Shown in pieces: positions 3,894 through 48,400 of a DNA stretch of 64,000 bases; the stretch's first letter is position 1, and the number at the start of each line of letters is the position of its first letter. The DNA lies in contig CAVVMJ010000003.1 of NCBI GenBank assembly GCA_963749445.1, positions 64,715 to 128,714 of the forward strand. The letters are read 5' to 3'. A program made the position numbers and the translations under genes. Below the pieces are notes generated by a model, which was not told the DNA's origin, made no database searches, and saw only the letters and a program-made list of their open reading frames with translations. Source of the DNA: an uncultured bacterium (GTDB lineage Bacteria > Patescibacteriota > Doudnabacteria > UBA920).

Positions 3894-4114
3894 AGGGATG
3901 AGGATTAATTCTTAGGTTCTCTATTTTAAGCGGTTTTTTGATGTTTGTCAAGGTTAAATTTTGACCGTTTTTCGTCTTAAATACAACAAAAAATCAGGCT
4001 TTCCCCTCCTGATTTTTGGATTAAATAATCGACTACTTAATCCGAAATTCCCTTCTTTATTTGATTCTACACCTTTTCGGCAAAATAAAAAAATACACTA
4101 AAACCATCAAAAAA

Positions 4115-4140
4115 GGGACGGTTTAAAACCGTCCCCTACG
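4115..4140 (-). terminator. rho-independent terminator of gdhA
   Basis: Minus strand reads gggacggttttaaaccgtccc followed by a T-run. Confidence 0.6.
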
Positions 4141-4220
4141 ATGGCAGGCCGAGGGCCTGCGCTACATCTCAAGTTTATTTTTGCCGATGAATAGGCCCCC
4201 ACTCAGCGTCATATCAGCGA

Positions 4221-5450
4221 CTATTTCTCACCCGCGTCCAATATCCGCTTGGTGGCCAAAATGTAGGCCGCGTTGCGGAAGGTGGTTTTATATTTTTCTT
4301 TGACCTCTAACACATCGGTAAAAGCTTGCTTAATCTGCTTTTCCAATTTTCCCAAAACCTGGGCCTTGTCCCAGGACTCATCATGCATATTCTGATACCA
4401 CTCATAATAAGAAGTACAAACGCCGCCGCTGTTGGCTAAAATGTCCGGAATTACCGTGACGCCTTTTTTGGCAAAAACTTCGTCGGCTTCCGGTGTGGTC
4501 GGACCATTAGCCATTTCCACGATTAATTTTGCCTTGATTTTGCCGGCATTTTTTTCGGTTAAAACGTTTTCCAAAGCGGCCGGAACCAGGACATCGGCCT
4601 CCAGCTCCAACAATTGTTCGTTACTGATATTCTTTGAACCGATAAAGTCCTTAAGGCCGCCCGTGGATTTTTTGTGCGCGAAAACTTTATCCATATCCAA
4701 ACCTTCCGCATTGTAAATGCCACCCTTAGAATCCGACAGCGCGACAATTTTGTACCCAGCTTCAAAAGCTTTTTTGGCGAAAAACGTGGCCACGTTGCCA
4801 AAACCCTGGACCGCGATTCTCGCGCCCTTAGGCACGTCCATAATTTTTGATTCAACGAAACTTTCAAACACCCAATAGCCGCCAAAGCCCGTAGCCTCTT
4901 CACGGCCTTGGCTCCCGCCTTTGCCAATTGGTTTGCCCGTAAAAGTCGCCAGCGACTTACTGCCGGACATTTTTTGGTATTCCTCGGTCATCCAGGTCAT
5001 AATCTGGCCGTTGGTATTGACGTCGGGAGCGGGCACATCCACTTCCGGGCCGAGCAGTCGCCACATTTTTTGCACCCAGCCGCGCGACATTTTTTCCAGT
5101 TCCGTTTCGGACAGTTCTTTGGGGTTAACGATAATTCCGCCTTTGCCGCCGCCAAACGGCACGTTAACCACCGCGTTTTTAAAGCTCATCCAAAAACTCA
5201 GCGCCCGCACTTCGTCAAGGTTTACATCTTGATGATAGCGGATACCGCCCTTGTAAGGCCCGCGATTGTTGTTGTGCTGGCTCCGAAAACCCGTAAAAAT
5301 TTTCTGCCTGCCGTTGTCCATCATTACCGGAATGGAAACTTCCACGTACCGGTCGGGAACTTTTAACTGCTCAATTTTATTCTTGTCAAAGCCGGCAATC
5401 TGCGCCGCCTGCTCAAGCTGCTTTTTTGCGCTGTCAAAAGGATTATTCAT
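4221..5450 (-). CDS. gdhA: NAD(P)-dependent glutamate dehydrogenase
   Basis: GGGKGG motif and KGGIRYH...FWMSFKNA, typical of Glu/Leu/Phe/Val dehydrogenases; 409 aa. Confidence 0.9.
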   Translation of the reverse strand: MNNPFDSAKKQLEQAAQIAGFDKNKIEQLKVPDRYVEVSIPVMMDNGRQKIFTGFRSQHNNNRGPYKGGIRYHQDVNLDEVRALSFWMSFKNAVVNVPFGGGKGGIIVNPKELSETELEKMSRGWVQKMWRLLGPEVDVPAPDVNTNGQIMTWMTEEYQKMSGSKSLATFTGKPIGKGGSQGREEATGFGGYWVFESFVESKIMDVPKGARIAVQGFGNVATFFAKKAFEAGYKIVALSDSKGGIYNAEGLDMDKVFAHKKSTGGLKDFIGSKNISNEQLLELEADVLVPAALENVLTEKNAGKIKAKLIVEMANGPTTPEADEVFAKKGVTVIPDILANSGGVCTSYYEWYQNMHDESWDKAQVLGKLEKQIKQAFTDVLEVKEKYKTTFRNAAYILATKRILDAGEK

Positions 5451-8516: not shown

Positions 8517-8618
8517 GGCCGGTCCTCCGGAAGCGGTCCACACAAGACGTGGCGGGCCAAGTCGAGGCCCATATCCGGAAGACAAAGATCAATAAGGAGG
8601 AAAAAGAAAGGAGACTTT

Positions 8619-8891
8619 ATGTCCCCGACCTTGTTCCTATTGGTAGGACTGGCAACGGTAATGTTGTTTGGCGCCAAGTTTGACACCACACAACTGAAGG
8701 CAAAGCTGAAAAAGCGAGTGCCTCCCGTTAAATTCCTGCCAAGGGCGATAGGTTTAGCTCTCATAGCAGCCCAATGTTCGGAGCTGCTTAAGATGGTAGA
8801 GCAAACCTCACTCGTCCACCTGGTGGCCGCGCTGCTGTTGTTAGCAGTCATACTGGCCACCCGATCGGGAACAGAAGTCGGGACAGAGTAG
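8619..8891 (+). CDS. small membrane protein of about 90 aa with two predicted TM helices
   Basis: ATG at 8619 follows RBS aaggagg. The track ORF 8466..8891 begins inside the promoter, so its N-terminal extension is rejected. A GC-rich leader of about 100 nt precedes the gene. Confidence 0.5.
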   Translation: MSPTLFLLVGLATVMLFGAKFDTTQLKAKLKKRVPPVKFLPRAIGLALIAAQCSELLKMVEQTSLVHLVAALLLLAVILATRSGTEVGTE

Positions 8892-26222: not shown

Positions 26223-28291
26223 TCAATTACTTAAACTCTGCAAAAATTTCACAATTCTGTTATCCAGCATAATGTCGGCGCCTACGACCGGACATTTTAA
26301 GTACAGTCCTTCCAGGGTGCGGCAGCGGGAGAGAGCGACATAAAGCTGGCCGTGCGCGAATGTGCCGGTGGAAAGGTCTACGCAGACTTTGTCAAATGTT
26401 TTGCCCTGGGCTTTGTGGATGGTTACGGCCCAGGCCAATTTAAACGGATACTGGGTAAAGGTGCCTACGGTCCGGCTATCAATTTTTTGCGTGTCTTTGT
26501 CCAGGTAATATTGGTACATTTCCCAGGTATAAGGCGTGACGTATTCGGTTTCGCCGGTTTCCAGTTCGATGACGATGCTGTCGGATGATGGGGTTTGGTC
26601 TTCGTATTCATCAGAGGTCCCACCTCTCTGCCCCTCATGGGGGCTAGTGAGGGCATCTCCCCTCGCCCCGCCGTCGCCAAGGCTTTGGCGGGCAGGCAGG
26701 GGAGAAGGGAACACTGAATCATCACACGGCACGCCACGGCGTGCCGCTACATCGCCGTTATCGTTATTGTCATCGTTGTTGCCCTTTTCTATCCCCACAA
26801 TCTTGCCCATAGTGCCGTTGACCCAGCGTTTTTGCCTGTCGTTGTTAAGCATCATTATTTGCGCGCCGATTTTTACGCGCAGGTCCAAATCGGTGGGCAA
26901 TTCGCGGTCTTCAAATTTGCCGGACGCGCTGCCGTTATAAATTTTCGCAGGGGATAATATTTTTTCCAGGAAAAATCGTTAACCTTGCGCGCCCGCGCAT
27001 TGGTAGGCGTTAAATAAATCGCGAATTTTTCAAAAGTGAACGTTGCCCCGGCCTCCTGCGAGCGTTGGTTTAATATTATAAGATGTTCCTCGGTGGCCGC
27101 GTTGTTGCGCACGGCGTTCAAAACGTCCAAAAATACCTGATCCTTTTGCCTGTACACCTGTTGCAATTGGATATAATTAAATTTTGCGGTTTTAAAACTC
27201 CGGGAATCAAAAAAATACGGGCTTTGATATTCCTGCATCAGCACGCTTTCGCTGCCGAAATCTTTATCTACCGGCGGCAGCTGATACAAATCGCCGATGA
27301 ATATCATCTGCAATCCGCCAAAGGGCTCATGCGGAGCCGGGCCGTTTAAGCGCAAAAACTTTTCCAAACAATCCAGCAAGTCCGCGCGCACCATGGAGAT
27401 TTCATCGATAATTATCACATTAAGTTTTTGCAGCAACTCAAACTTTGCCGATCCCGGCTTTAACTTCTTTACCCTGTGGACGGTAATGTCCGGCCCAAAG
27501 GCGCAAAAACTGTGGATAGTCTGGCCTTCCACGTTCAAGGCAGCCACGCCCGTGGGCGCCAGCACCACGAGATTCTTTTTGGTGTGGTAACGGAAATATT
27601 GCAGCAAGGTGGATTTGCCCGTGCCCGCCTCGCCGGTTAAAAATAAATTTTGATTTGAATTTTCCAGCAACTCCAGCGCTTTTAGGGCTTCGGGATTTCC
27701 GTTAAAATCCAAGGGCGGGAGTTCCGGCTCATGACGACGAGCCTCTAATCGCGGACGGCCAAAATCCGCCCCTACATCCTCACGTCTATATTTAACCAAC
27801 TCCCCCGCCAGTTGCTCCAGGCGGTTGCGGATAAATTCGCCTTTTACTTTTCCCAACGCATCCGATATCCGTTTAATAAACGCCAAATAAGTTTCGCGCT
27901 TGCCCTGTAAATACTTTTGGTATTCCGCCCGCAAAAAATCGTTTTGGCCTTGCGGGATGGCCTCTTCGGTTTGTTTGTCCAGCTCTTTTTTACGGAACTC
28001 GCCCTGGGCGTAATCCCAACCCGGGACGTCTTGGAAACTTGCAGCCAGCCGCGCCTTGAGCCCGCCGGCCGCGCGGCCAAAATCCAAAATTATTTTGTCT
28101 AAAAACGCGTCAAAATCCCCTGGCTCACCCGCCACGTCGTTTCGCGAACGACTGTGGCCCGCGCAAAAATCCCGGTACAATTTCTTTAGCTTTTCGTCCT
28201 CTTCGGCGTCCCACTTCTTGCCCATGCGCGGATGCTTTTTGCGCAGTTCTTCGAGGTTGGATATTTTATTTTGGCTGATTGTATCTTGCAT
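26223..28291 (-). CDS. Pif1/RecD-like SF1 helicase, interrupted by a +1 frameshift near 26915-26925 and carrying GC element C in frame
   Basis: GEAGTGKST (Walker A), IIIDEISMV, and C-terminal [15 protein letters not shown]. The ORFs 26873..28291 and 26223..26900 overlap; removing one base in gcagcgcgtccggc restores ...[17 protein letters not shown]. Confidence 0.65.
26615..26750. repeat. GC-rich hairpin-mosaic element copy C, in frame within the helicase
   Basis: gcccctcatgggggc, cgccaaggctttggcg, cggcacgccacggcgtgccg. Confidence 0.55.
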
Positions 28292-31046: not shown

Positions 31047-31489
31047 AAATTTTGCAACTTAAAAATATTAATTATTATAAATATTCCCGCCCAAGTTATG
31101 CTAAAAATGATTCGGTAACAAAGGACGTCTGTGCATACTATGGGCGAAAGACAACTACAATGGCCGCGGCGGGGGCTTGGGGAGAGGGGAAGCGATGTTT
31201 CTATTATCCCCTCCCTGGTTAACTCCGCAATTTTGCGCGCGACCGCGGGCGCCAAAATATTTTTGCCCACTCCATGGACAATCCGGCAGCAAGGCTGCCC
31301 GGCGGCATTCATGCCCGCAACAAAACTTTCAAGCTCAACCAAAGCTTCCGCCGCCGTCTTCCCGTGCAAATCCAATTCCGGCAGCTGGCCGGACCCGTCG
31401 GCAAGCTCCGCATGACTCCGCCTCACCTGAGCCTCGCTGACCCTTTCCACCGGCGGCAAGCCTTTATTTGGATATTTATCCCTGCGCAT
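30917..31489 (-). CDS. Smr-domain protein; the C-terminal extension reads through a GC-rich element and is uncertain
   Basis: LDLHGKTAAEALVELESFVAGMNAAGQPCCRIVHGVGKNILAPAV. Confidence 0.5.
   Translation of the reverse strand: MRRDKYPNKGLPPVERVSEAQVRRSHAELADGSGQLPELDLHGKTAAEALVELESFVAGMNAAGQPCCRIVHGVGKNILAPAVARKIAELTREGIIETSLPLSPSPRRGHCSCLSPIVCTDVLCYRIIFSITWAGIFIIINIFKLQNLCLNQKARNAEILYFLPTLWKTGIQSPRLKPANPAPFWFTRVS
31085..31112. repeat. direct repeat ii
   Basis: cccgcccaagttatgctaaaaatgattcgg. Confidence 0.45.
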
Positions 31490-31530
31490 AATAAAATATT
31501 CTAAATCTTAATAACACCGCCTTAACCCGC

Positions 31531-31565
31531 CCGCCCAAGTTATGCTAGGGAATTAATGGGTTATG
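31531..31565. repeat. direct repeat iii
   Basis: cccgcccgcccaagttatgctagggaattaatggg. Confidence 0.5.
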
Positions 31566-31601
31566 TCCCCATTTTCATCCAAAAATAGTTATTCCATAAA
31601 A

Positions 31602-32270
31602 CTAAACGCTATCAATATCAAATTCATCAGAAAATTCCTCTCCACCCAGTCGTTTCTTCTCCTTTATAGCAATATTAAATAATTTTATCAATTCGTTTTT
31701 TGCTTCCGTGGAATTTGGCTTTAAAAATCCAGAAGCGATTAAATCTATATTCTGCTCAACATAATTTTTCGAATATTTATAGCCCACACCTGACCCGGTT
31801 ATTATTCCCTTATGGTGACAAAGAGTCAGATCAGGTGACCAGAATAATTCATAAACTGAGTACTTGCTATCATAGGCTGTTTTACCACACAAAACAAAAC
31901 CTGCGGCATGAACATCCATTAGATTGGACATTTCTTGTTTATTTCTTTCAAGTTGAAGCAATACATCACTTTCAATAAGGTTTTTGAAATCATTGACGAT
32001 CTTTTTTAGATTCTTCCCCTTATATCCCTTAGACCTCTCAAAGTCTGAACAATATACATTCCAAAATTTGCCGTTAAACTGATTTAAACCATGATTATAA
32101 ATAATTAATGGAATATTTTTAAATTTATATATTTTGTTAAAATTATCCTGATTTTCCACCAAACTATTCGTACGTTTGATTTGTCTTCTTCGATCAGCGC
32201 AAACATATATTCCATTTTTACATAATGCGGTTAAAATTAAAGTCATATTTTTTTGTTGACCACTATACAA
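31602..32270 (-). CDS. HslV/proteasome-beta-like Ntn-hydrolase peptidase
   Basis: N-terminus MTLILTALCKNGIYVCADRRR (Thr right after Met, as in TTIV...GVVLAADRR). Later GIITGSGVGY resembles the HslV GSGG loop. The gene is AT-rich. Confidence 0.5.
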   Translation of the reverse strand: MYSGQQKNMTLILTALCKNGIYVCADRRRQIKRTNSLVENQDNFNKIYKFKNIPLIIYNHGLNQFNGKFWNVYCSDFERSKGYKGKNLKKIVNDFKNLIESDVLLQLERNKQEMSNLMDVHAAGFVLCGKTAYDSKYSVYELFWSPDLTLCHHKGIITGSGVGYKYSKNYVEQNIDLIASGFLKPNSTEAKNELIKLFNIAIKEKKRLGGEEFSDEFDIDSV

Positions 32271-32327
32271 ATTTTAGTATTAAGCAACCCTACACTTAAA
32301 GTAATGGGGCAATTTAATATACGATTT

Positions 32328-32858
32328 TTAATTAACAATATCTCTTATTCTTCTCTTAAACTCCTTTTCAATATCGTTAGAATTAATTTGTTTCCCAAAA
32401 AAGAAACATTTAGCCCTATTTTCTTTTGGAACAACATAGTCAATTAAACTTTTGCCGTAAGACGTTCCGCAATGCACTTGATGAACAAACTCCTTGCCAT
32501 ATTTGACAGGATCGTTAAAATCACAATAATATAAAACCTTGTCGCCTTTTAATTTGAAACTGTGCGAGTCTCCGTGACCAACAAAATACACTTCTTTTAT
32601 ATCTTTATCAACCATTATTTTTTCTATGTCCTCAAAACTTGCTTTTGGATAAAAAGAAAAATTTTGCTTTTTAACATTCAAGTGTTCTACAATCGCCTTG
32701 ATATCACTTTTTAAGAAGTTGTATTTAAACCAAGTTTTAAGTTTGGACCAATCAGATCGTCCTAAAACGATTACTGTCTCTGCAGGTACATTTTGATTGA
32801 ATTTTTTTAAATACCTGTTTACGAAAAAGTTATCGACTAAGCGTATCAATACAAACAA
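32328..32858 (-). CDS. membrane-anchored protein with a possible caspase-like (CHAT/C14) His-Cys dyad; the 5' end appears truncated by the IS
   Basis: EVYFVGHGDSHS followed about 37 aa later by EFVHQVHCGTSYG. The ORF has only a TTG start, and its reading frame continues up to the left end of the IS. Confidence 0.35.
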   Translation of the reverse strand: MFVLIRLVDNFFVNRYLKKFNQNVPAETVIVLGRSDWSKLKTWFKYNFLKSDIKAIVEHLNVKKQNFSFYPKASFEDIEKIMVDKDIKEVYFVGHGDSHSFKLKGDKVLYYCDFNDPVKYGKEFVHQVHCGTSYGKSLIDYVVPKENRAKCFFFGKQINSNDIEKEFKRRIRDIVN

Positions 32859-32880
32859 AAGTGCAACAATGAACGTAATA

Positions 32881-33600
32881 ACTAAGGCTCTAGACTAGAA
32901 GATTTGTTCTGTTGTAGTCTAAAGATGTGATTAAATGGTCAAAACTGACAAAATTTCAATGGGTCAAAGTAAAACACGGTTTTTGTGATGATTTAACTGC
33001 GACCCAAACAGCTAAACTTACAGGAATTAATCGCAACACAGTTAACAAGTACTACAAACTTTTTAGGGAGAAAATCGCCAAACATCAGGAGTCGGTCAGC
33101 AATGGGTTCAGCGGCCAGGTAGAGCTGGATAAAAGTTACTTCGGTGGCAGGAATAAAGGCAGGCGGGGCAGGGGTACAGAGAAGATTCCGGTCTTTGGCA
33201 TTAAAAGGCGTAACGGTAGAGTCTACACCCAAATTATTAAGAATGCCAGTAGCGCCGAAATCAGGCCAATTATCAGGGAGTTTGTGAGGAGAGGCAGTAT
33301 TGTGTATACCGATGGTTGGCGGGCTTACGACGGATTGGTTCTGGATGGCTACAAACATTTTCGGATTAATCATCGAATTTTTCAGTACTCCGACCGTAAA
33401 GGGGCCCACGTTAACGGCATCGAAAACTTTTGGAGCTTTTCCAAACGGCGGTTGGCAAAGTTTAACGGCATTAATCCTAAAAATTTTTACCTACACCTAA
33501 AGGAATGCGAATGGCGCTACAATGAGAAGCCCGATTTGTACAAAAAACTATCATTAATTCTTAAAATCTTCTAGGCAAGAGCCTAACTAATTCAAACATT
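32881..33600 (+). mobile_element. IS1595-family insertion sequence of about 720 bp
   Basis: Single transposase ORF; imperfect terminal inverted repeats aactaaggctct... and ...agagcctaactaatt. Confidence 0.65.
32927..33574 (+). CDS. IS1595-family (ISXO2-like DDE) transposase
   Basis: VELDKSYFGGRNKGRRGRG...VYTDGWRAYDGL...HFRINH. Confidence 0.8.
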   Translation: MIKWSKLTKFQWVKVKHGFCDDLTATQTAKLTGINRNTVNKYYKLFREKIAKHQESVSNGFSGQVELDKSYFGGRNKGRRGRGTEKIPVFGIKRRNGRVYTQIIKNASSAEIRPIIREFVRRGSIVYTDGWRAYDGLVLDGYKHFRINHRIFQYSDRKGAHVNGIENFWSFSKRRLAKFNGINPKNFYLHLKECEWRYNEKPDLYKKLSLILKIF

Positions 33601-33777
33601 ATTACAATTAATATTAATCCAATTGTTTGCATATCTAAAAATTACGTAATAAAATATATAACTATATAAGCCGTCTTTATTCTTTATTATAACAAAAAAC
33701 CGGGCTAATGTCCGATTTTTTGATAATTCTGGTTTCGGTCTCAACAGGGCAATACCCAGATCCGACCTCTGACAAAA

Positions 33778-33951
33778 TTATTTATGCTTGCGGACACCTT
33801 TAAAAAATTTGTTCCGTTTGGAATATTGATCCATGAACAAGTGAGTTTCTGTATCAATCTTAGTATACCGTTTTATTTTTGGATTCCAGACCTGAATCCT
33901 CTTTTTTACCGCACCAATTCGTCCTTTTCCCGGAGGAGGATTTATAGCCAT
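33778..33951 (-). CDS. possible small basic protein (57 aa); not in the track because it is under 60 aa
   Basis: MAINPPPGKGRIGAVKKRIQVWNPKIKRY... with RBS agaggg. Confidence 0.2.
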   Translation of the reverse strand: MAINPPPGKGRIGAVKKRIQVWNPKIKRYTKIDTETHLFMDQYSKRNKFFKGVRKHK

Positions 33952-34092
33952 ATTTATTCACCCTCTTTCCCTATCAATTTTTCGACCTTTAACTTAAATT
34001 TAAGACAGACTCTGTGGATAAACTCGTTTGACTCACTAAGTCATGTCCCCCTATAATAATAGTATAGTCGAAAATAAATCGAAAGTCAAGTT

Positions 34093-35952
34093 ATGATCAC
34101 TAAACGCCAAAAACAAACCCTAGACTTTATAATGGCTTTCAGTAAAAAGCATGGTTTTGCGCCGTCTTTGGAAGAAATAAAAAAACACTTAAGGTTGTCC
34201 TCTGTTTCAACTGCCCATCATCATGTTAAAAAGCTAGAGGAATCCGGCCTTATTTACAAACAAAGCAATCAACCCCGAGCCGTCAATCCGAAAAAACAGG
34301 CTCATAATATTGAAGTCCCGATAGTCGGCACTATCGCTGCCGGCCAACCTATAGAAGCTATTGAAGTACCGGGTGAGACAATAACTATTACCAAGGACGA
34401 AATTAGCAAACAAGGCAAACATTACGCTTTGCGCGTACAAGGTAACAGCATGATTGAGGAGGGCATTTTTGATGGCGATATTGTTGTTATTCGCAAACAA
34501 GAAATGGCTGACAATGGACAAACAGTGGTTGCTATTATTGATGATAACGAGGCGACACTAAAAAAACTATATCGGGAAAAAGATAAATTTAGACTTCAAC
34601 CAGCAAACCCAACCCTATTCCCGATTTATCGAAAAGAGGTAGAAATTCGCGGTATAGTTGTAAAAATAATCCGAACCCTTGAATCACAAATTGAGAAAGA
34701 CAAACCAAATGAAAAATATACACGACGAATAGATTACTCGTGGGATTATCGAGGGGAAAATACCAAAACATATACCCATGGAATTCATTCTTATCCTGCA
34801 ATGTTCATACCCCAAGTAGCACGTAGGTTATTGGAAACTTATAGTAAAGAAGGCGACACAATTTGTGATATTTTTTGCGGTTCCGGCTCGGCCCTTGTAG
34901 AAAGCAAAATTTTAAATAGGAATGCATATGGCATAGATTTAAACCCATTGGCAATTTTTCTTGCAAAAGCAAAAACTACCCCGATCAATCCTCAAAAATT
35001 GATGAACGAATATATTACATTGCTTGATGCAATTCCAAAAATAAAAGACACCGAAATAAAAAAACCTAATTTTAAAAATATTGATTTTTGGTTCAAAAAC
35101 AATGTTATAATAAAACTTTGTAAATTAAAAATGGCGATTCACAAAATAAAAAATGTCGCGGTGCGTAATTTTATGCTAATTGCTTTTAGCGAAACTGTGC
35201 GCTATTCCTCAAATACAAAAACTGGTGAATTCAAACTTGTGAGAATTAAAAACGGCAAATTAGAAAATCATGATCCAGATGTAATAGGCATTTTCCGTAA
35301 AAAAATAGAGACTAGTATTGCTGGGATGGGCGAATTTTATAAAGACGCGAAAAAAGACGCTTGGACAAAAATTATTTATGGGGATTCTTCAACGGATAAC
35401 GGCATAAAAGCATCTTCCATTGACTGTATCATTACCTCTCCGCCTTATGGAGACAGCCGTACGACTGTCGCTTATGGTCAATTTTCTCGGCTTTCCGCAC
35501 AATGGATAGACATTTTCGACGACCCTAATGAGGCTTCCGGTGTAGATAATGAATTGCTTGGGGGTAGGGCCACCAAAACACTAATCCATACTCTTTCATC
35601 AAATTATCTAAACGATTCGTTAGGCAAAATTACTAAACAAGACGAAACTAGGGCTAAAGATGTGCTAAGTTTTTATATCGGACTTAACGATTGCTTAAGG
35701 CAAGCTTACAAATTACTAAAGCCTAAAAAATATTTTTGCCTTGTTGTTGGCAATAGGCTTGTAAAACAGGTTCGAATTCCTACAGATTTTATTATTGCCG
35801 AGCTGGGAGAAAAAATTGGCTTTACCTGTGAAGATATTTTTGTCCGTAATATTCCAGGTAAAAGAATGCCAATAAAAAACTCCCCCACCAATATTGTAGG
35901 GGCATTAGAAGAGACAATGAACAAAGAAAGCATAGTTATTCTTAGAAAATAA
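34093..35952 (+). CDS. fusion protein: full LexA-like repressor (wHTH plus S24 autopeptidase) joined to an SPPY-type DNA methyltransferase; the modification subunit of a Type II R-M system
   Basis: aa 1-200: HTH, the cleavage-site motif VGTIAAGQP, Ser in GNSM and Lys in TLKKL, aligning to E. coli LexA (VGRVAAGEP / GMSM / VKRL). aa 200-619: DIFCGSGS (motif I) and IITSPPYGD (motif IV). One uninterrupted ORF. Confidence 0.75.
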   Translation: MITKRQKQTLDFIMAFSKKHGFAPSLEEIKKHLRLSSVSTAHHHVKKLEESGLIYKQSNQPRAVNPKKQAHNIEVPIVGTIAAGQPIEAIEVPGETITITKDEISKQGKHYALRVQGNSMIEEGIFDGDIVVIRKQEMADNGQTVVAIIDDNEATLKKLYREKDKFRLQPANPTLFPIYRKEVEIRGIVVKIIRTLESQIEKDKPNEKYTRRIDYSWDYRGENTKTYTHGIHSYPAMFIPQVARRLLETYSKEGDTICDIFCGSGSALVESKILNRNAYGIDLNPLAIFLAKAKTTPINPQKLMNEYITLLDAIPKIKDTEIKKPNFKNIDFWFKNNVIIKLCKLKMAIHKIKNVAVRNFMLIAFSETVRYSSNTKTGEFKLVRIKNGKLENHDPDVIGIFRKKIETSIAGMGEFYKDAKKDAWTKIIYGDSSTDNGIKASSIDCIITSPPYGDSRTTVAYGQFSRLSAQWIDIFDDPNEASGVDNELLGGRATKTLIHTLSSNYLNDSLGKITKQDETRAKDVLSFYIGLNDCLRQAYKLLKPKKYFCLVVGNRLVKQVRIPTDFIIAELGEKIGFTCEDIFVRNIPGKRMPIKNSPTNIVGALEETMNKESIVILRK

Positions 35953-35967
35953 CAGCACAATCAAATT

Positions 35968-36654
35968 TTAGCTAACTATATCTCTAATAGTTTTAAAAAG
36001 GACGGGTAACTTATTTTCGTATACTCTAAATCCAGTCCCGTGGTTTCGAGCCATGGTGACTTTATCATGGAGCCTTAGGTCAACCAAAATATTTTCGGCT
36101 CTGAATTGATCGGCAAGCAAATCTGGAGATGTCCCTTTCATCAATTGAGCTCTAAAAAAATGAAAATACTCTTTACCGGCTCGTTCCTCAGAAAAAGCCG
36201 AAGCATACAATAAGGCAGGCAATTTTTGAATGAACCTTTCGGTCAATTGTTTCAACTGCCATACAGCGACGATTTCCCCGGAGATATGTCGTACGGATAT
36301 TTCACGATTTGTTACATTTAAAAACAGTCCAGCGCTGTTTGGCTTTAACGACATTGTATAATAAAGTCCAATTCTACCATTTGCATCTTTGCTGCCAAAT
36401 TTTTTTACCGCCTTTAACGGCGGCATTTTCCAAACTTTATTATTAAAAGTAAATAAGGTAATCAAATTCTGAGAATTCGATCGATGGGCTTTAAGCTCAA
36501 CCTTGTGCAAATCCGGCATGGCAATATTATTCTCTTTTAAACCCAAACTTTTTTCCAAGGTGTGTCCTATTCCAGTCGGTCCGTTTCTTTTTGAAGGAAC
36601 AAAACCTTTAGCTTTCAACAATTTGAATTTTTTGATAAATTCTGGTAATTTCAT
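35968..36654 (-). CDS. MvaI/BcnI-family Type II restriction endonuclease
   Basis: KRNGPTGIGHTLEKSLGL..NN...PDLHKVELKAH...LITLFT and C-terminal GTGFRV match the MvaI/BcnI hallmark (GNTGIGKTFEDLL...PDF..IEIK...LTLFT...AFRI). Confidence 0.65.
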   Translation of the reverse strand: MKLPEFIKKFKLLKAKGFVPSKRNGPTGIGHTLEKSLGLKENNIAMPDLHKVELKAHRSNSQNLITLFTFNNKVWKMPPLKAVKKFGSKDANGRIGLYYTMSLKPNSAGLFLNVTNREISVRHISGEIVAVWQLKQLTERFIQKLPALLYASAFSEERAGKEYFHFFRAQLMKGTSPDLLADQFRAENILVDLRLHDKVTMARNHGTGFRVYENKLPVLFKTIRDIVS

Positions 36655-36655
36655 A

Positions 36656-36829
36656 TTATTTCTTATTCCTAAAATCGCGAATAACAATCCCGCCGTTAAT
36701 CTTTTTTATTACAACTCTCTGCTTTTCCCTCCAGCCGAGCGCCTCGGTCATTTCTTTGGGTAGAGTGGTGGCCAGGCTGGTTTTGCCGATTTTGAGGAGT
36801 TTTCTGACGTTTTTTTGCTTGAGTTTCAT
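36656..36829 (-). CDS. AbrB/MazE/SpoVT-like swapped-hairpin DNA-binding protein (57 aa), translationally coupled to the endonuclease; candidate controller protein
   Basis: MKLKQKNVRKLLKIGKTSLATTLPKEMTEALGWREKQRVVIKKINGGIVIRDFRNKK. Its stop TAA sits one base before the endonuclease ATG (taatATG). Under 60 aa, so absent from the track. Confidence 0.5.
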   Translation of the reverse strand: MKLKQKNVRKLLKIGKTSLATTLPKEMTEALGWREKQRVVIKKINGGIVIRDFRNKK

Positions 36830-36880
36830 AGGTTTATTATTAGTAGTTAGTAGATAGCAGTTAGCATATAGGGCGCTGGA

Positions 36881-40663: not shown

Positions 40664-44583
<3,920 letters not shown>

Positions 44584-45458: not shown

Positions 45459-48400
45459 TTACTTGCTCTTTTTCTCCTTCTTCGGCTTCTTTTTGACTTC
45501 ATCCGCAAACAGCGATATATCGGGAACCGTGACCGGCATTACCGGCGCGCCCGGCACCACGATTTCCTGTTCCTGCGCCGCCGTGGTAATGCTGCCGTCG
45601 GCTCCCAGCAGTTCTACATCAAGACCAAGTGATTGTAATTCTTTGACCAAAACCCTAAAACTTTCCGGAATGTTTGGCTTTTTAATCGGTTCGCCTTTGA
45701 CTATCGCCTCATAAGTTTTTGACCGGCCAACCACGTCGTCGGACTTAATCGTGAGCATTTCCTGCAAAGTGTGCGCCGCGCCATAGCCTTCCAAAGCCCA
45801 GACTTCCATTTCCCCAAAGCGCTGTCCGCCGAACTGGGCCTTGCCGCCGAGCGGCTGCTGCGTGATTAAGCTGTACGGACCCGTGGAGCGCGCGTGCATT
45901 TTATCATCAACCAAATGGTGGAGCTTTAAAAAATACATAATGCCGACCGTAACTTTTTCGTCAAACGGTTCGCCGGTTTTGCCGTCGTACAAAACCACTT
46001 TGCCGTCTTCGGGAACGCCGGCCTTTTTTAATTCTTCCTTGATTTGCGCTTCGGTCACCCCGTCCAAAACCGGTGTGGCCACTTTATAACCTAATTTATA
46101 GGCAGCCATGCCCAAATGGGTTTCCAAAATTTGACCGAGGTTCATACGGGACACCACGCCAAGCGGGTTTAAAATAATGTCCACGGCGCGGCCGTCCTTC
46201 ATAAACGGCAAGTCTTCCACCGGAATAATTTTACTGATGACGCCTTTGTTGCCGTGGCGGCCGGCCATTTTGTCGCCGACCTGGATTTTTCTTAACACTG
46301 CCACCGACACTTGGATAGAGCGGATAACGCCCGACGGCAATTTGTCGCCGGCTTCGCGCGTAAATTCGCGGATATTGACGACTTTGCCGTATTCGCCGTG
46401 CGGCAGGGTCAAGGAGGTGTCTTTGACGTCACGGGATTTTTCGCCGAAAATCACGCGCAAAAGTTTTTCTTCCGCGGTCAAATCGGTTTCGCCTTTGGGC
46501 GTAATTTTGCCGACCAAAATGTCGCCGGCTTTAATTTGCGCGCCGATGCGGATGACGCCGTTCTCGTCCAAATCCTTGAGTTTTTCCTCGCCGACGTTGG
46601 GAATATCGCGCGTAACCTGCTCGGGGCCCAATTTAGTGTCGCGCACGTCAATTTTAAAATCGTCTATGTGGATGCTGCTGTAACGGTCGGCCTGCACCAC
46701 GCGCTCGGAAACCAAAACCGCGTCTTCGTAGTTACCGCCTTCCCAGGACATAAACGCTACCAAAACATTTTGGCCCAAAGCCAACTCTCCCCCTTCGGTG
46801 GAGGCGCCGTCCGCCAAAAGCTCGCCTTTTTTGACATGCTGGCCTTTGTCTACGCGCGGAATTTGGTTTATGGACGTAGCCGAATTGGTACGCAAAAATT
46901 TGAGCAGATGGTATTCCCGTTTTTTACCCTTGTCGCCGACTACGACAATTTTGTCGCCGCTGACCGAAGTGACGTCGCCGTCTTCCTCGGCCACTACAAT
47001 GGTGCCGCTGTCGCGGGCCGCTTTTTGTTCCATACCCGTGCCCACGAACGGCGCCTCGGGCTTAATGCAGGACACGGCCTGCCGCTGCATGTTACTGCCC
47101 ATAAGCGCGCGGTTGGCGTCATCGTGCTCCAAAAACGGGATCAGCGAAGTGGTCACGGAAATAATCTGTTTGGGCGAAACATCCACACAGTCAATGTCGT
47201 CCGTGCTAGCCACGCTGGGCACGGTGTGCAGCCTAACAGCGGCGCGCGGCTGGACAAAATAACCGTTGTCCGCGATCTCAATGCCGGCCTCGCCGATAAT
47301 CAAACCTTCCTCTTCAAACGCGTCCAAATAGCGGACCTCGTCGGTCACGCGGGGCTTGATGCGGAACTCCGCCGCTTGGCTGTTTTTGGCCGCCTCTTTG
47401 GCTTTGGCGGCGGTGACGGTTTCGCCGGCCGCGATGGCGACATTGCCTTTGCCATCTTTAATATCATAAAGGGAAATTTCGCCCACTAAATCTTTGCCGT
47501 CGTTTTTGGCGATTTTTTTGGCAAAACGGTAGGGGGTTTCAATAAAACCAAAATCATTCACTCTGGCATAAGTGGCCAAGTGGGCTACCAGGCCGATGTT
47601 CGGGCCTTCGGGCGTGGTAATGGGGCAAAGCCGGCCGTAGTGGCTGTGGTGCACGTCGCGCACTTCAAAACCGGCGCGCTCGCGGGACAGTCCGCCGGGA
47701 CCCATGGCGGACAGCCTTCTCTTGTGTTCCAGCTCGGCCAAAGGGTTAGTCTGGTCCATAAATTGCGACAGTTGCGAGGAGGAAAAAACTCCTGCATGGT
47801 GGCGACTATGGGCCGCACGTGGATAAGCTGGGCCGGAGTCACGGTTTCCAAATCGGCCAAGGACATGCGGTCTTTGGCAATGCGCGCCATACGGGCCAGA
47901 CCCACGCGGAACCGGGTCTGAATGAGCTCCCCAACCGCGCGCACGCGGCGGTTGGCCAAATGGTCAATGTCGTCCGGCGCTTCCTGGGTATTGTTCAGGC
48001 GGATGACTTCGCGCACCACGGCCACTAAATCTTCCAACAGCAACAGCGGATTGTCGCGCTTAACGTCTATGTGCAGGCGCTGGTTGAACTTGTAGCGGCC
48101 AACCGGGGAAAAATCGTATCTTTCAAAATTAAAAAACATGCCGCTGATGAGGGACTTGGCGTTGTCCACGGTGGCCAAATCGCCGGGGCGGATTCTTTTA
48201 TAAACTTCCTTAAAACCTTCGTCACTGTTGGTGGATGCGTCTTTGGCCAAAGTTGACTCTATATATTTGGTGTCCGGGTCAGTGTCAATGTCGGCAAAAG
48301 CCTGCAAAATTTGGTCGTTGGATGAAAGACCGAACACGCGCATCAGCGCGGTAATCGGAATGCGGCGCTTTCTGTCTATTTTTACGCCGATGACGCCGGC

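Follow-up and report, generated by a model that had tools for sequence, protein, structure and literature searches.

Related systems

The MEROPS family T1 of threonine hydrolases includes HslV, the proteasome beta subunit, Anbu, and BPH. The canonical T1 active site comprises the triad Thr1, Asp17, and Lys33, together with Gly47 (PMC8665760). A survey by Fuchs, Alva and Lupas in 2021 added 22 new subfamilies of proteasome homologues, and no informative genomic context was found for them (PMC8665760). Assembly into self-compartmentalising hexameric or heptameric double rings is a hallmark of the T1 family. Proteasome-family members can be monomeric, as Connectase shows (PMC7980362).

Among toxin-antitoxin systems, RosmerTA (RmrT/RmrA) has a hub antitoxin with a protease domain, which is paired with toxins of many kinds, PIN-like nucleases among them (PMC10440598). 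Panacea likewise has a conserved antitoxin partner that is combined with many unrelated toxins (PMC8832971).

The low-GC island

The window (the whole 64-kb stretch of DNA analysed here) contains a low-GC island at 31550..36850, with a GC content of 0.27–0.43 compared to 0.45–0.56 in its flanks. Its left edge lies just past the stop codon of P1, an intact minus-strand gene (31602..32246) for a 214-aa protein that is predicted, from its ORF, homologues, AF2 model, and Foldseek matches, to be a Thr1 (Ntn) hydrolase of the proteasome fold. Upstream of it lies P2 (32328..32879, minus strand), a 5′-truncated gene for a putative membrane-anchored His/Cys protein with clan-CD-like features, delimited by tblastn, HMM, AF2, and Foldseek. 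The GC content is 0.31 in P1, 0.305 in P2, and 0.468 in the whole window. The spacer between the two genes (32247..32327, minus strand) comprises 81 bp. No promoter-like site with 16–18-nt spacing is found in it, and the scan for promoters and terminators is uninformative given the AT-rich DNA.

The same island carries a type II restriction-modification (R-M) unit at 34093..36829. It consists of a plus-strand gene (34093..35952) whose product joins a LexA DNA-binding and S24 peptidase domain to an N6/N4 methyltransferase, a minus-strand MvaI/BcnI endonuclease (35968..36687), and a small minus-strand AbrB/MazE-like protein (36656..36829). The methyltransferase matches PADLOC at 1.4e-129, and the endonuclease match is at 1.6e-39. 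The preliminary description, made from the sequence alone, had placed P1 and P2 in a low-GC island beside an R-M system and had called them accessory rather than housekeeping genes. The GC drop and the R-M genes confirm the first statement, and the second is supported by the low GC content, the island position, and the occurrence of relatives of both genes in defence or mobile contexts. For the sequence features described there, the conservation and the E-values far exceed what chance would give.

The region would be the margin of a low-GC island gained by horizontal transfer, probably in the chromosome of a member of the Patescibacteria (CPR). The island would hold an R-M system, an IS1595-family element, and two unrelated accessory genes, P1 and P2, whose adjacency would be a product of island assembly rather than of functional pairing. 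As a whole, with all its parts taken jointly, this account is likely to be correct. The fold assignments, the truncation of P2, and the lack of pairing, taken together, are very probable.

The proteasome-like gene P1

The start of P1 is assigned to the ATG at 32246, because all homologues begin with MTLIL. The minus-strand reading frame first proposed (31602..32270) is therefore retained, but not its TTG start at 32270. The N-terminus reads M-T-L-I-L-T, and the threonine follows the initiator methionine directly, without a propeptide, as in HslV. Homologues form 75 clusters among 5.8 billion, all with the MTLIL start, and only 8 loci occur among 185,579 species representatives. The residues M1, T2, L3, I4, L5, A17, D18, K38, N51, H52, G53, G121, W136, and G153 are invariant in an alignment of 38 sequences, and M1-T2 is also kept in all 32 locus-derived sequences.

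In mature numbering the relevant positions of P1 are Thr1, Asp17, Lys37, Gly52, and Ser151-Gly152, the last site being Ser/Thr-Gly across the family. D18 corresponds to mature Asp17, in exact register with the proteasome triad. K38 corresponds to mature Lys37 and lies just before strand E39-41, a shift of four residues from the Lys33 of known T1 members. The invariant G53 is at the end of strand E47-53 in the AF2 model. As in T1 members, a lysine precedes S3, a glycine closes S4, and Ser/Thr-Gly comes ahead of helix H3; this register is judged from the alignment and the model strands. The glycine- and serine-rich loop reported at the outset is present as I-T-G-S-G-V-G and includes the invariant G153.

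The AF2 model of P1 (pLDDT 91.4, pTM 0.87) is a predicted alpha-beta-beta-alpha sandwich like that of T1 members. Foldseek against the PDB gives 397 matches at E ≤ 1e-3. Each of the best 50 is a chain of a proteasome, Anbu, or HslV, with E-values from 8e-8 to 1e-6, a probability of 1.0, and TMq values up to 0.65. In BFVD the top match is to a phage protein named 'proteasome beta', at E 7.8e-10 and TMq 0.70. A scan of IMG/VR viral contigs for the P1 and P2 families shows no relatives and no sign of phage-borne copies.

At the sequence level P1 has no Pfam match at E ≤ 1, including Proteasome (PF00227), and its family profile finds nothing relevant among PDB sequences. An hhalign comparison of this profile with a single E. 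coli HslV gives no alignment, but the comparison is too insensitive. The relationship of P1 to T1 members is visible only at the level of fold and active site. The fold and the conserved catalytic residues bear out the early assignment of P1 to the Thr1 hydrolases like HslV and the proteasome beta subunit. The structural half of the check then suggested came out positive, whereas the profile half did not.

These data support a proteasome/HslV-type Ntn fold for P1, with predicted catalytic residues in register. The initiator methionine would be removed to leave Thr1 as the nucleophile. Thr1 would be assisted by Asp17, Lys37, and the oxyanion position Gly52, as in HslV and the proteasome beta subunit, giving a putative peptidase.

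The search of defence databases proposed for both proteins did not place either of them in a known system. P1 and P2 match no family of PADLOC-DB v2 at E ≤ 1, and only genes in their neighbourhoods do so, namely R-M, AbiV, HNH effectors, HEC-05/GmrSD, and PDC candidates. PHROGs and NCBIfam likewise give no meaningful match for P1 or P2.

Compared to known T1 members, P1 is distinguished by the lack of a sequence-level match to Pfam Proteasome or any PDB chain, and by the lysine at 37 instead of 33. The P1 family is small, rare, and unannotated. It is almost confined to Patescibacteria MAGs and occurs in defence and mobile islands. Like most of the 22 new subfamilies, P1 has no AAA+ partner. 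Whereas the survey reported no informative context for those families (PMC8665760), P1 recurs in operons whose other members vary; P1 and the published subfamilies are compared here by description.

The insertion element and the truncated gene P2

The IS1595-family element (32877..33592, plus strand) is 716 bp long and occurs as a single copy in the window. Its ends, 32877-32905 and 33564-33592, are inverted repeats of 29 nt with 83% complementarity. Its DDE transposase (32927..33574) matches DDE_Tnp_IS1595 (PF12762) at 1.1e-33 over model positions 3-153 of 153. By its length the element probably belongs to the IS1016 subgroup. The domain, the terminal repeats, and the size are those of the IS1595 family.

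The homology of P2 ends exactly at the left inverted repeat, and tblastn alignments stop at 32879. The open reading frame at 32328..32858 (minus strand) stays open as far as 32894, with a TAG at 32897-32895. The Logan contig L001, an independent assembly, has the identical junction of P2 and the element. The sequences bordering the element, ATGAACGT and CAAACATT, are not alike, so there is no target-site duplication, and the lost 5′ part of P2 turns up neither past the element nor anywhere else in the window. In contrast to a simple IS1595 insertion, the interrupted gene is thus not resumed on the far side. These two features indicate a secondary deletion or recombination at the element rather than a simple insertion. 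The earlier proposal that the element inserted into the 5′ end of P2 holds for the position of the truncation, exactly at the end of the element, but not for a simple insertion.

What is left of P2 is the 3′ two-thirds of a gene whose full-length homologues have about 245 aa. It covers positions 59-238 of the 241 positions of the family profile, and the first ~58 codons are gone. In the homologues these codons encode two of three hydrophobic segments. The hydrophobic segment described earlier as an N-terminal TM helix is just what is left of the third one. No ATG occurs before residue ~81, and the reported absence of an ATG in a frame reaching the element is accordingly upheld. Because the promoter, the start codon, and the first ~58 codons would have been lost through a rearrangement associated with the IS1595 element, the P2 copy is most likely a pseudogene.

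An intact P2 would be a membrane protein of about 245 aa that combines three hydrophobic segments with a small caspase-like His/Cys domain. Both reported motifs, GHGDSH and HQVHCG, occur in the remnant, and the His-Cys spacing is 35 residues rather than the roughly 37 first given. Only three columns, H165, G166, and C200, are invariant across 87 relatives, which are 16-48% identical to the reference. At 50% identity the P2 superfamily resolves into 260 representative clusters, and the P2 family is rare, unannotated, and mostly found in Patescibacteria. Elsewhere it is a stand-alone gene beside R-M systems, CBASS-like genes, serine recombinases, and terminases. As compact, unannotated membrane proteins with catalytic-looking His and Cys residues, recurring near R-M and CBASS-like genes, the members of this superfamily merit characterisation.

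P2 and the clan CD peptidases

In the caspase p20 topology, a histidine and then a cysteine each follow a hydrophobic beta-strand. The AF2 model of the full-length P2 homologue P0039 (pLDDT 94.2) has strand E159-163 followed by GHG, and strand E194-197 followed by V-H-C-G. The predicted secondary-structure order therefore matches caspase p20, and the invariant His-Gly and Cys are at the C-terminal ends of core strands, as in clan CD (C14, C13, CHAT). The best 50 Foldseek matches are mostly clan CD structures (caspase-3, -6, -8, -11, SAVED-CHAT, and legumain), with a probability up to 0.97 and E-values of 0.02-0.1. A wide P2 profile finds the caspase-3 chain 6wi4_A as the best non-membrane match among PDB sequences, at a marginal E of 0.05, in an alignment that spans the first strand, helix, strand, and helix. 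The profile of the close family finds nothing among the same sequences.

P2 also differs from the clan CD examples. Its domain of about 155 aa is much smaller than that of caspases and has no obvious p10-like half, an N-terminal region with three hydrophobic segments is fused to it, and its motif is H-C-G instead of the Q-A-C-x-G of caspases. Neither Pfam nor PADLOC models match, and all similarity scores are below conventional significance. No Pfam C14, C13, or CHAT match, and no bridge to a named family, is found in P0039 or the 87 relatives. The preliminary description of a caspase/CHAT-like dyad is thus matched by the invariant residues and the kind of structures found, but not by a Pfam family, and the E-values are weak. 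A caspase-like (clan CD) soluble domain is plausible at this weak level of similarity.

Upstream partners of P1

Typically, P1 closes a short operon. At 18 of 28 distinct loci (64%), the gene upstream of P1 is on the same strand at a gap of 60 bp or less, compared to 76 of 191 background pairs (40%; Fisher p = 0.013); this statistic is modest and based on crude ORF calls in gene-dense genomes. Tight coupling to the downstream gene occurs at only 3 of 25 loci (12%). The upstream enrichment and downstream depletion give the asymmetry expected for an operon-terminal gene. At 6 loci the upstream neighbour is on the opposite strand.

The upstream partners fall into about 25 mutually unrelated clusters. 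Annotated partners contain PIN (2.8e-8), an HNH effector (1.7e-24), HNH (9.5e-9), GapS1 (3.6e-13), GmrSD_N with HEPN (4e-32 for GmrSD_N), HEPN (5e-8), and DUF4145 (1.3e-8). About half of the partners are unannotated, and one is a housekeeping ABC-3 permease. Inspection by eye shows no common N- or C-terminal tag in them. Partners are also exchanged between close relatives, as P1 proteins that are 70-78% identical to each other follow unrelated partners. In one case, a 443-aa partner and P1 are co-conserved at ~70% nucleotide identity, while the downstream flanks differ.

The occurrence of one conserved gene with many unrelated partner families in a bicistronic arrangement resembles RosmerTA and Panacea, and the conserved RosmerTA partner has a protease domain, as is predicted for P1. 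In contrast, RmrA belongs to the ImmA-type zinc metallopeptidases and frequently has an HTH domain, whereas P1 is a predicted proteasome-fold threonine hydrolase without a DNA-binding domain and lies downstream of its partner. The likeness is only one of functional analogy, and P1 is not assigned to either system.

The conservation of P1 beside varied upstream genes suggests, with no more than moderate support, that one protease family serves a range of different effectors, much like the hub antitoxin of RosmerTA. P1 may neutralise, mature, or otherwise control the variable effector, by a logic that would be analogous to that of the RosmerTA protease antitoxin RmrA or the Panacea antitoxin domain. 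A functional partnership of P1 with its upstream gene is possible, but somewhat less likely than not. GmrSD-type and GapS1-type enzymes act alone elsewhere and need no antitoxin, which counts against it. The wider proposal, that the P1 family is an undescribed proteasome branch recruited in Patescibacteria as a hub partner (antitoxin, maturase, or regulator) of interchangeable nuclease effectors, is tentative and somewhat unlikely.

If such a role is true, it would give a proteasome homologue a functional context outside bulk protein degradation, and P1 would be the first one with a defined role in a toxin-antitoxin or anti-phage module. A threonine Ntn protease would join the short list of hub partners (Panacea, ImmA/RmrA) as the counterpart of the ImmA-type antitoxin of RosmerTA. 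This new class of hub partner would come from CPR bacteria, in which the defence repertoire is poorly known. The search for literature on proteasome homologues in defence or toxin-antitoxin contexts returned nothing.

The effectors concerned are of the PIN, HNH, HEPN, GmrSD, and GapS1-like types.

Alternative explanations

P1 could be the housekeeping HslV of the organism, the proteolytic core of an HslUV-type machine, and its propeptide-free Thr1 N-terminus and the HslV structures among its Foldseek matches are consistent with this. None of the inspected loci has an AAA+ or HslU gene beside P1, however, and the failure to match Pfam Proteasome even at E ≤ 1, the rarity of the family in both searches, the GC content of 0.31 in a genome of 0.47 at the edge of an island, and the defence or mobile islands around its relatives make this reading extremely improbable. 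P1 could instead be a solitary proteasome-like peptidase without a functional tie to its upstream neighbour, the tight spacing being a result of compact CPR genomes and of repeated insertion at gene ends in variable regions. Tight pairing already amounts to 40% in the background, the partners are extremely diverse, half of them are unannotated, one is a transporter permease, and the 22 other families of proteasome homologues have no informative context either (Fuchs et al., PMC8665760). Two loci, L041 and L048, moreover suggest that P1 moved without its upstream gene, as their similarity begins only 12 nt ahead of the P1 start codon. The excess of upstream over background and downstream coupling, the over-representation of nuclease and defence domains immediately upstream, the co-inheritance of the 443-aa partner, and unconserved non-coding flanks, which argue against a self-mobile cassette, speak for a tie to the upstream gene, and a stand-alone P1 is rather unlikely.

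For the pair itself, the preliminary description proposed a two-protease module, possibly for defence or abortive infection. In a dedicated module of this kind, a caspase-like membrane protein could, for instance, be the sensor or effector that works with a proteasome-like peptidase. The two genes share a strand, a similarly low GC content, and an island that also holds an R-M system, only 81 bp separate them, and P2 occupies the position in which P1 normally has a functional-looking partner. The census of other loci largely refutes this module. A P2-family gene is found within 5–6 kb of P1 in 0 of the 56 other loci fetched, and P1 is found in 0 of 7 independent P2 loci, so that the search for orthologous pairs returns no second case and the adjacency is unique to this genome. 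At most other loci the gap between P1 and its partner is −4 to +57 bp, narrower than the 81 bp here. P2 is moreover truncated in this genome, and no PADLOC match is obtained. P1 and P2 are unrelated neighbours and not a conserved pair, and a two-protease module is very unlikely. The annotation is corrected accordingly: the locus is not a two-protease system, and its upstream gene is a truncated remnant. A related question is whether the P2 family consists of peptidases at all: H165, H199, and C200 could bind metal or serve another purpose, and the likeness to caspases could reflect no more than a generic alpha/beta sandwich. Every Foldseek E-value is above 1e-3, none of the 87 members has a Pfam C14, CHAT, or C13 match, and an hhalign comparison with a single caspase-3, itself too insensitive, is empty. 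H199, which is at least 90% conserved beside C200, is atypical for clan CD and could indicate metal binding, and the close family keeps several other histidines and cysteines. The predominance of clan CD among the best 50 structural matches, the caspase-3 match of the profile, and the placement of the invariant His-Gly and Cys after hydrophobic strands in the p20 order argue for the caspase-like assignment, and a non-peptidase role is quite unlikely.

Flanking DNA of P1

If P1 were a mobile cassette, its non-coding flanks should be conserved, but no such conservation is general. A ~100-nt element is common to only three related P1 loci, and it has no Rfam match and no support for RNA structure or covariation. 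In L041 and L048, P1 is conserved together with about 100 nt of downstream DNA and not with the upstream partner.

Proteasome-like protein P1

P1 (31602..32246, minus strand) and P2 are the two minus-strand ORFs that the preliminary description took for a two-protease pair, and both are present. The P1 ORF stands, but its TTG start at 32270 does not; the gene in fact starts at the ATG at 32246, because all homologues begin M-T-L-I-L, which gives a protein of 214 aa. The AlphaFold2 model of P1 is confident (pLDDT 91.4, pTM 0.87) and has 397 Foldseek matches in the PDB at E <= 1e-3. The 50 matches listed (E 8e-8 to 1e-6, probability 1.0) consist entirely of proteasome subunits, Anbu and HslV, and in a viral library P1 best matches a phage protein of 219 aa labelled 'proteasome beta' (E 7.8e-10, TMq 0.70). 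Without the initiator Met, P1 has invariant Thr1, Asp17 and Lys37. The register of Asp17 matches that of the proteasome family exactly, whereas Lys37, directly before strand S3, is four residues off the family Lys33. Gly52 lies at the end of S4, and Ser/Thr151-Gly152 ahead of helix H3. These residues occupy the catalytic triad, oxyanion-hole and GSG positions that define the proteasome-like family (PMC8665760). The proteasome/HslV-type fold was thus correctly anticipated, and P1 is, as modelled, a proteasome-fold Ntn hydrolase; removal of its Met and enzymatic activity would be expected.

P1 has no match in Pfam, PADLOC, PHROGs, NCBIfam or PDB sequences. Its family is compact, comprising 75 clusters among 5.8 billion and only 8 loci among 185,579 species genomes. 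All members have 165-233 aa, lack fusions and are labelled 'hypothetical'; nearly every one is from a Patescibacteria MAG (Levyibacteriota, Daviesbacteria, Gottesmanbacteria, Woesebacteria, Parcubacteria). The invariant residues, counted from the Met, are M1, T2, L3, I4, L5, A17, D18, K38, N51, H52, G53, G121, W136, and G153. Fuchs, Alva and Lupas described 22 new proteasome-like subfamilies, none Patescibacteria-specific by their descriptions, and found no genomic contexts suggestive of function (PMC8665760).

Genomic context and possible role of P1

The usual gene before P1 lies on the same strand and ends -4 to +57 bp ahead of the P1 ATG. Such a tight upstream gene occurs in 18 of 28 distinct P1 loci, compared with 76 of the 191 remaining neighbouring gene pairs in these loci (Fisher p = 0.013), while P1 is tight to its downstream gene in only 3 of 25. 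P1 therefore acts like the last gene in a short operon. The upstream genes form about 25 clusters that are unrelated to one another, and the partners are unrelated even between P1 proteins 70-78% identical to each other. They include PIN (2.8e-8), a CBASS/SAVED-type HNH effector (PADLOC 1.7e-24), an 826-aa GmrSD_N/DUF262 + HEPN protein (4e-32), HEPN (5e-8), DUF4145 (1.3e-8), HNH (9.5e-9), an HNH-associated repeat protein, a GapS1-like antiphage protein (3.6e-13), and weaker PD-(D/E)xK-like and RnlA-like matches. About 10 partners are without annotation and one is an ABC-3 permease. Other genes near P1 encode AbiV, Fic, Mrr, a NucS-like nuclease, type III methyltransferases, and resolvases. The recurrent coupling of the P1 family to interchangeable nuclease-type genes is suggestive but statistically modest, and is the most interesting part left of the finding.

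The modelled folds, conserved active-site residues, truncation of P2, non-pairing, and context statistics were shown directly. Beyond these, P1 would be an active Thr1 peptidase acting on, or together with, the product of the variable upstream gene, which it could either neutralise in an antitoxin-like manner or mature and activate. Such a functional partnership is put forward tentatively. One 443-aa partner is co-conserved with P1 at about 70% nucleotide identity, and the downstream DNA differs. A counter-example is the pair of loci L041 and L048, in which similarity begins 12 nt ahead of the start codon of P1, so here P1 moved without the gene upstream of it. That P1 is simply an independent island gene is considered only slightly less likely than the partnership. 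tRNA genes flank several P1 loci at distances from a few hundred bases up to a few kb (L032, L036, L041, L048, L012, L022, L008), with tRNA-Asn(GTT) in the first four, which fits a tRNA-linked island hot spot. The closest functional analogy to P1 and its varied partners is RosmerTA, in which a conserved protease-domain antitoxin, RmrA (ImmA-type), is combined with diverse toxins including PIN-like nucleases (PMC10440598); the Panacea antitoxin domain is a similar case (PMC8832971). A full-text literature search found no paper tying proteasome homologues to toxin-antitoxin or anti-phage systems. In the window, the P2 remnant fills the partner slot 81 bp upstream, so this P1 may be an orphan that has lost its original partner or its promoter.

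Directly behind the stop codon of P1, three loci whose upstream partners differ share a conserved element of about 100 nt (L010:6668-6774, with a second copy at 8576-8653; L041:1959-2065; L048:5655-5758). It has no convincing ORF, RNA structure or covariation (-2.5 kcal/mol), or Rfam match.

Probable caspase-like membrane protein P2

The close homologues of P2 form 118 clusters, with 260 representative clusters at 50% identity; the members are nearly all about 240-260 aa long and without annotation. Full-length homologues comprise three hydrophobic segments (about residues 20-80) followed by an alpha/beta domain of about 155 aa. In 87 relatives (16-48% identity with the reference), the sole invariant columns are H165, G166, and C200, while G164, Y181, K192, and H199 are at least 90% conserved. 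None of the 87 has a match among curated family models. The confident full-length family model (pLDDT 94.2) places His-Gly after strand 159-163 and Cys after strand 194-197, separated by a beta-hairpin and short helices, with the elements in the same order as in caspase p20. Foldseek gave no match at E <= 1e-3 for this model; the best 50 matches are mostly clan CD peptidases (probability up to 0.97, about 125-145 columns), including caspase-3, -6, -8, -11, SAVED-CHAT (8tl0), and legumain (5obt). Independently, the top non-membrane match of a wide P2 profile among PDB sequences is the caspase-3 chain 6wi4_A (E 0.05), aligned over the first strand, helix, strand, and helix. The proposed caspase-like fold is plausible, and P2 is probably a clan-CD-like cysteine peptidase, although it is possible that H165, H199, and C200 bind metal.

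Truncation of P2 and its adjacency to P1

The IS element spans 716 bp (32877-33592), has 29-nt inverted repeats, occurs as a single copy within the window, and encodes a transposase matching DDE_Tnp_IS1595 at 1.1e-33. The P2 ORF (32328..32858, minus strand) has no ATG before about residue 81, and its frame is open to 32894, with a TAG at 32897-32895 inside the left inverted repeat. P2 covers profile positions 59-238 of 241 and its tblastn alignments stop at 32879, the IS terminus, which bears out the reported truncation. The missing part, about 58 codons with the start codon and two of three hydrophobic segments, was not found anywhere in the window, and the 8-bp IS flanks ATGAACGT and CAAACATT show no duplication. 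The event was therefore not the simple insertion first assumed; judged from the sequence, the 5' part appears to have been lost through deletion or recombination associated with the IS. Contig L001, which was assembled separately and is 100% identical to 31211-32914, has the same junction. P2 in the window is most likely a pseudogene.

In a census of 57 P1-family loci from genomes and metagenomes, searched with HMMs of both families, P2 occurs only in L001, the window's own sequence, and P1 occurs in none of 7 independent P2-family loci. The two genes are therefore neighbours in this genome only, and a functional two-protease module is not supported by these comparisons.

Elsewhere, P2 is usually a stand-alone gene within defence or mobile DNA. 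In L059 (1826-5738), four closely spaced same-strand genes encode a SAVED protein, SMODS/CD-NTase, an unknown 196-aa protein, and, last, P2, which raises the possibility of a CBASS-associated membrane effector in this one genome. Type I or type III R-M systems adjoin P2 in L061, L065, L068, and L069, and terminase genes are near it in the last two. In L067, P2 lies beside LexA/S24, methyltransferases, and a DUF4145 gene; the latter precedes a gene (4099-4989) for a protein of 296 aa that faintly matches Trypsin_2. This gene ends 11 bp before P2 and is a further protease-like neighbour, seen in this one locus. In the unrelated contigs L063 (3526-5747) and L065 (3007-5735), a large serine recombinase diverges from P2 at an identical distance of 134 bp, and genes for a ParB_N-methyltransferase, a protein of 141-149 aa, and a protein of 492 aa recur nearby. 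This pattern suggests a specific integrative element that carries P2 as cargo.

Island and surrounding DNA

The observation as a whole was confirmed with regard to both ORFs, the IS, the low-GC island, and the R-M unit. The island (about 31550 to 36850) encloses P1, P2, the IS, and a type II R-M unit, and the GC contents of P1 (0.313) and P2 (0.305) compare with 0.468 for the window, in line with what had been described. The R-M unit consists of a 619-aa fusion of LexA DNA-binding and S24 self-cleaving peptidase domains N-terminal to an N6/N4 DNA methyltransferase (34093-35952, plus strand), an adjoining MvaI/BcnI endonuclease (35968-36687, minus), and a small AbrB/MazE-like protein (36656-36829, minus). 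LexA/S24 adjoins methyltransferases as separate genes in L067 and L059. This suggests SOS-type control over R-M systems in these bacteria.

Two perfect direct repeats of 18 nt, CCCGCCCAAGTTATGCTA, lie at 31086-31103 and 31530-31547; the second coincides with the GC jump, 55 nt past the stop codon of P1. They exactly enclose a GC-rich segment with an Smr domain (31104-31529), and the DNA beyond either copy is AT-rich. The arrangement looks like a small inserted cassette. A PIF1-like helicase (26223-28291, minus) is broken into two overlapping ORFs, one with PIF1 and AAA_30 domains (26873..28291) and one with Pif1 2B and UvrD_C_2 domains (26223..26900), and may be a frameshift or pseudogene. The DNA of the window is chromosomal and includes rpoB- and rpoC-like genes at about 40-48 kb. 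Two separate minus-strand ORFs, 40664-42802 and 43027-44583, with a gap of about 224 bp, encode RNA polymerase beta-prime (Rpb1-type domains), and the rpoB-like ORF (45459..47759) begins inside domain 3.
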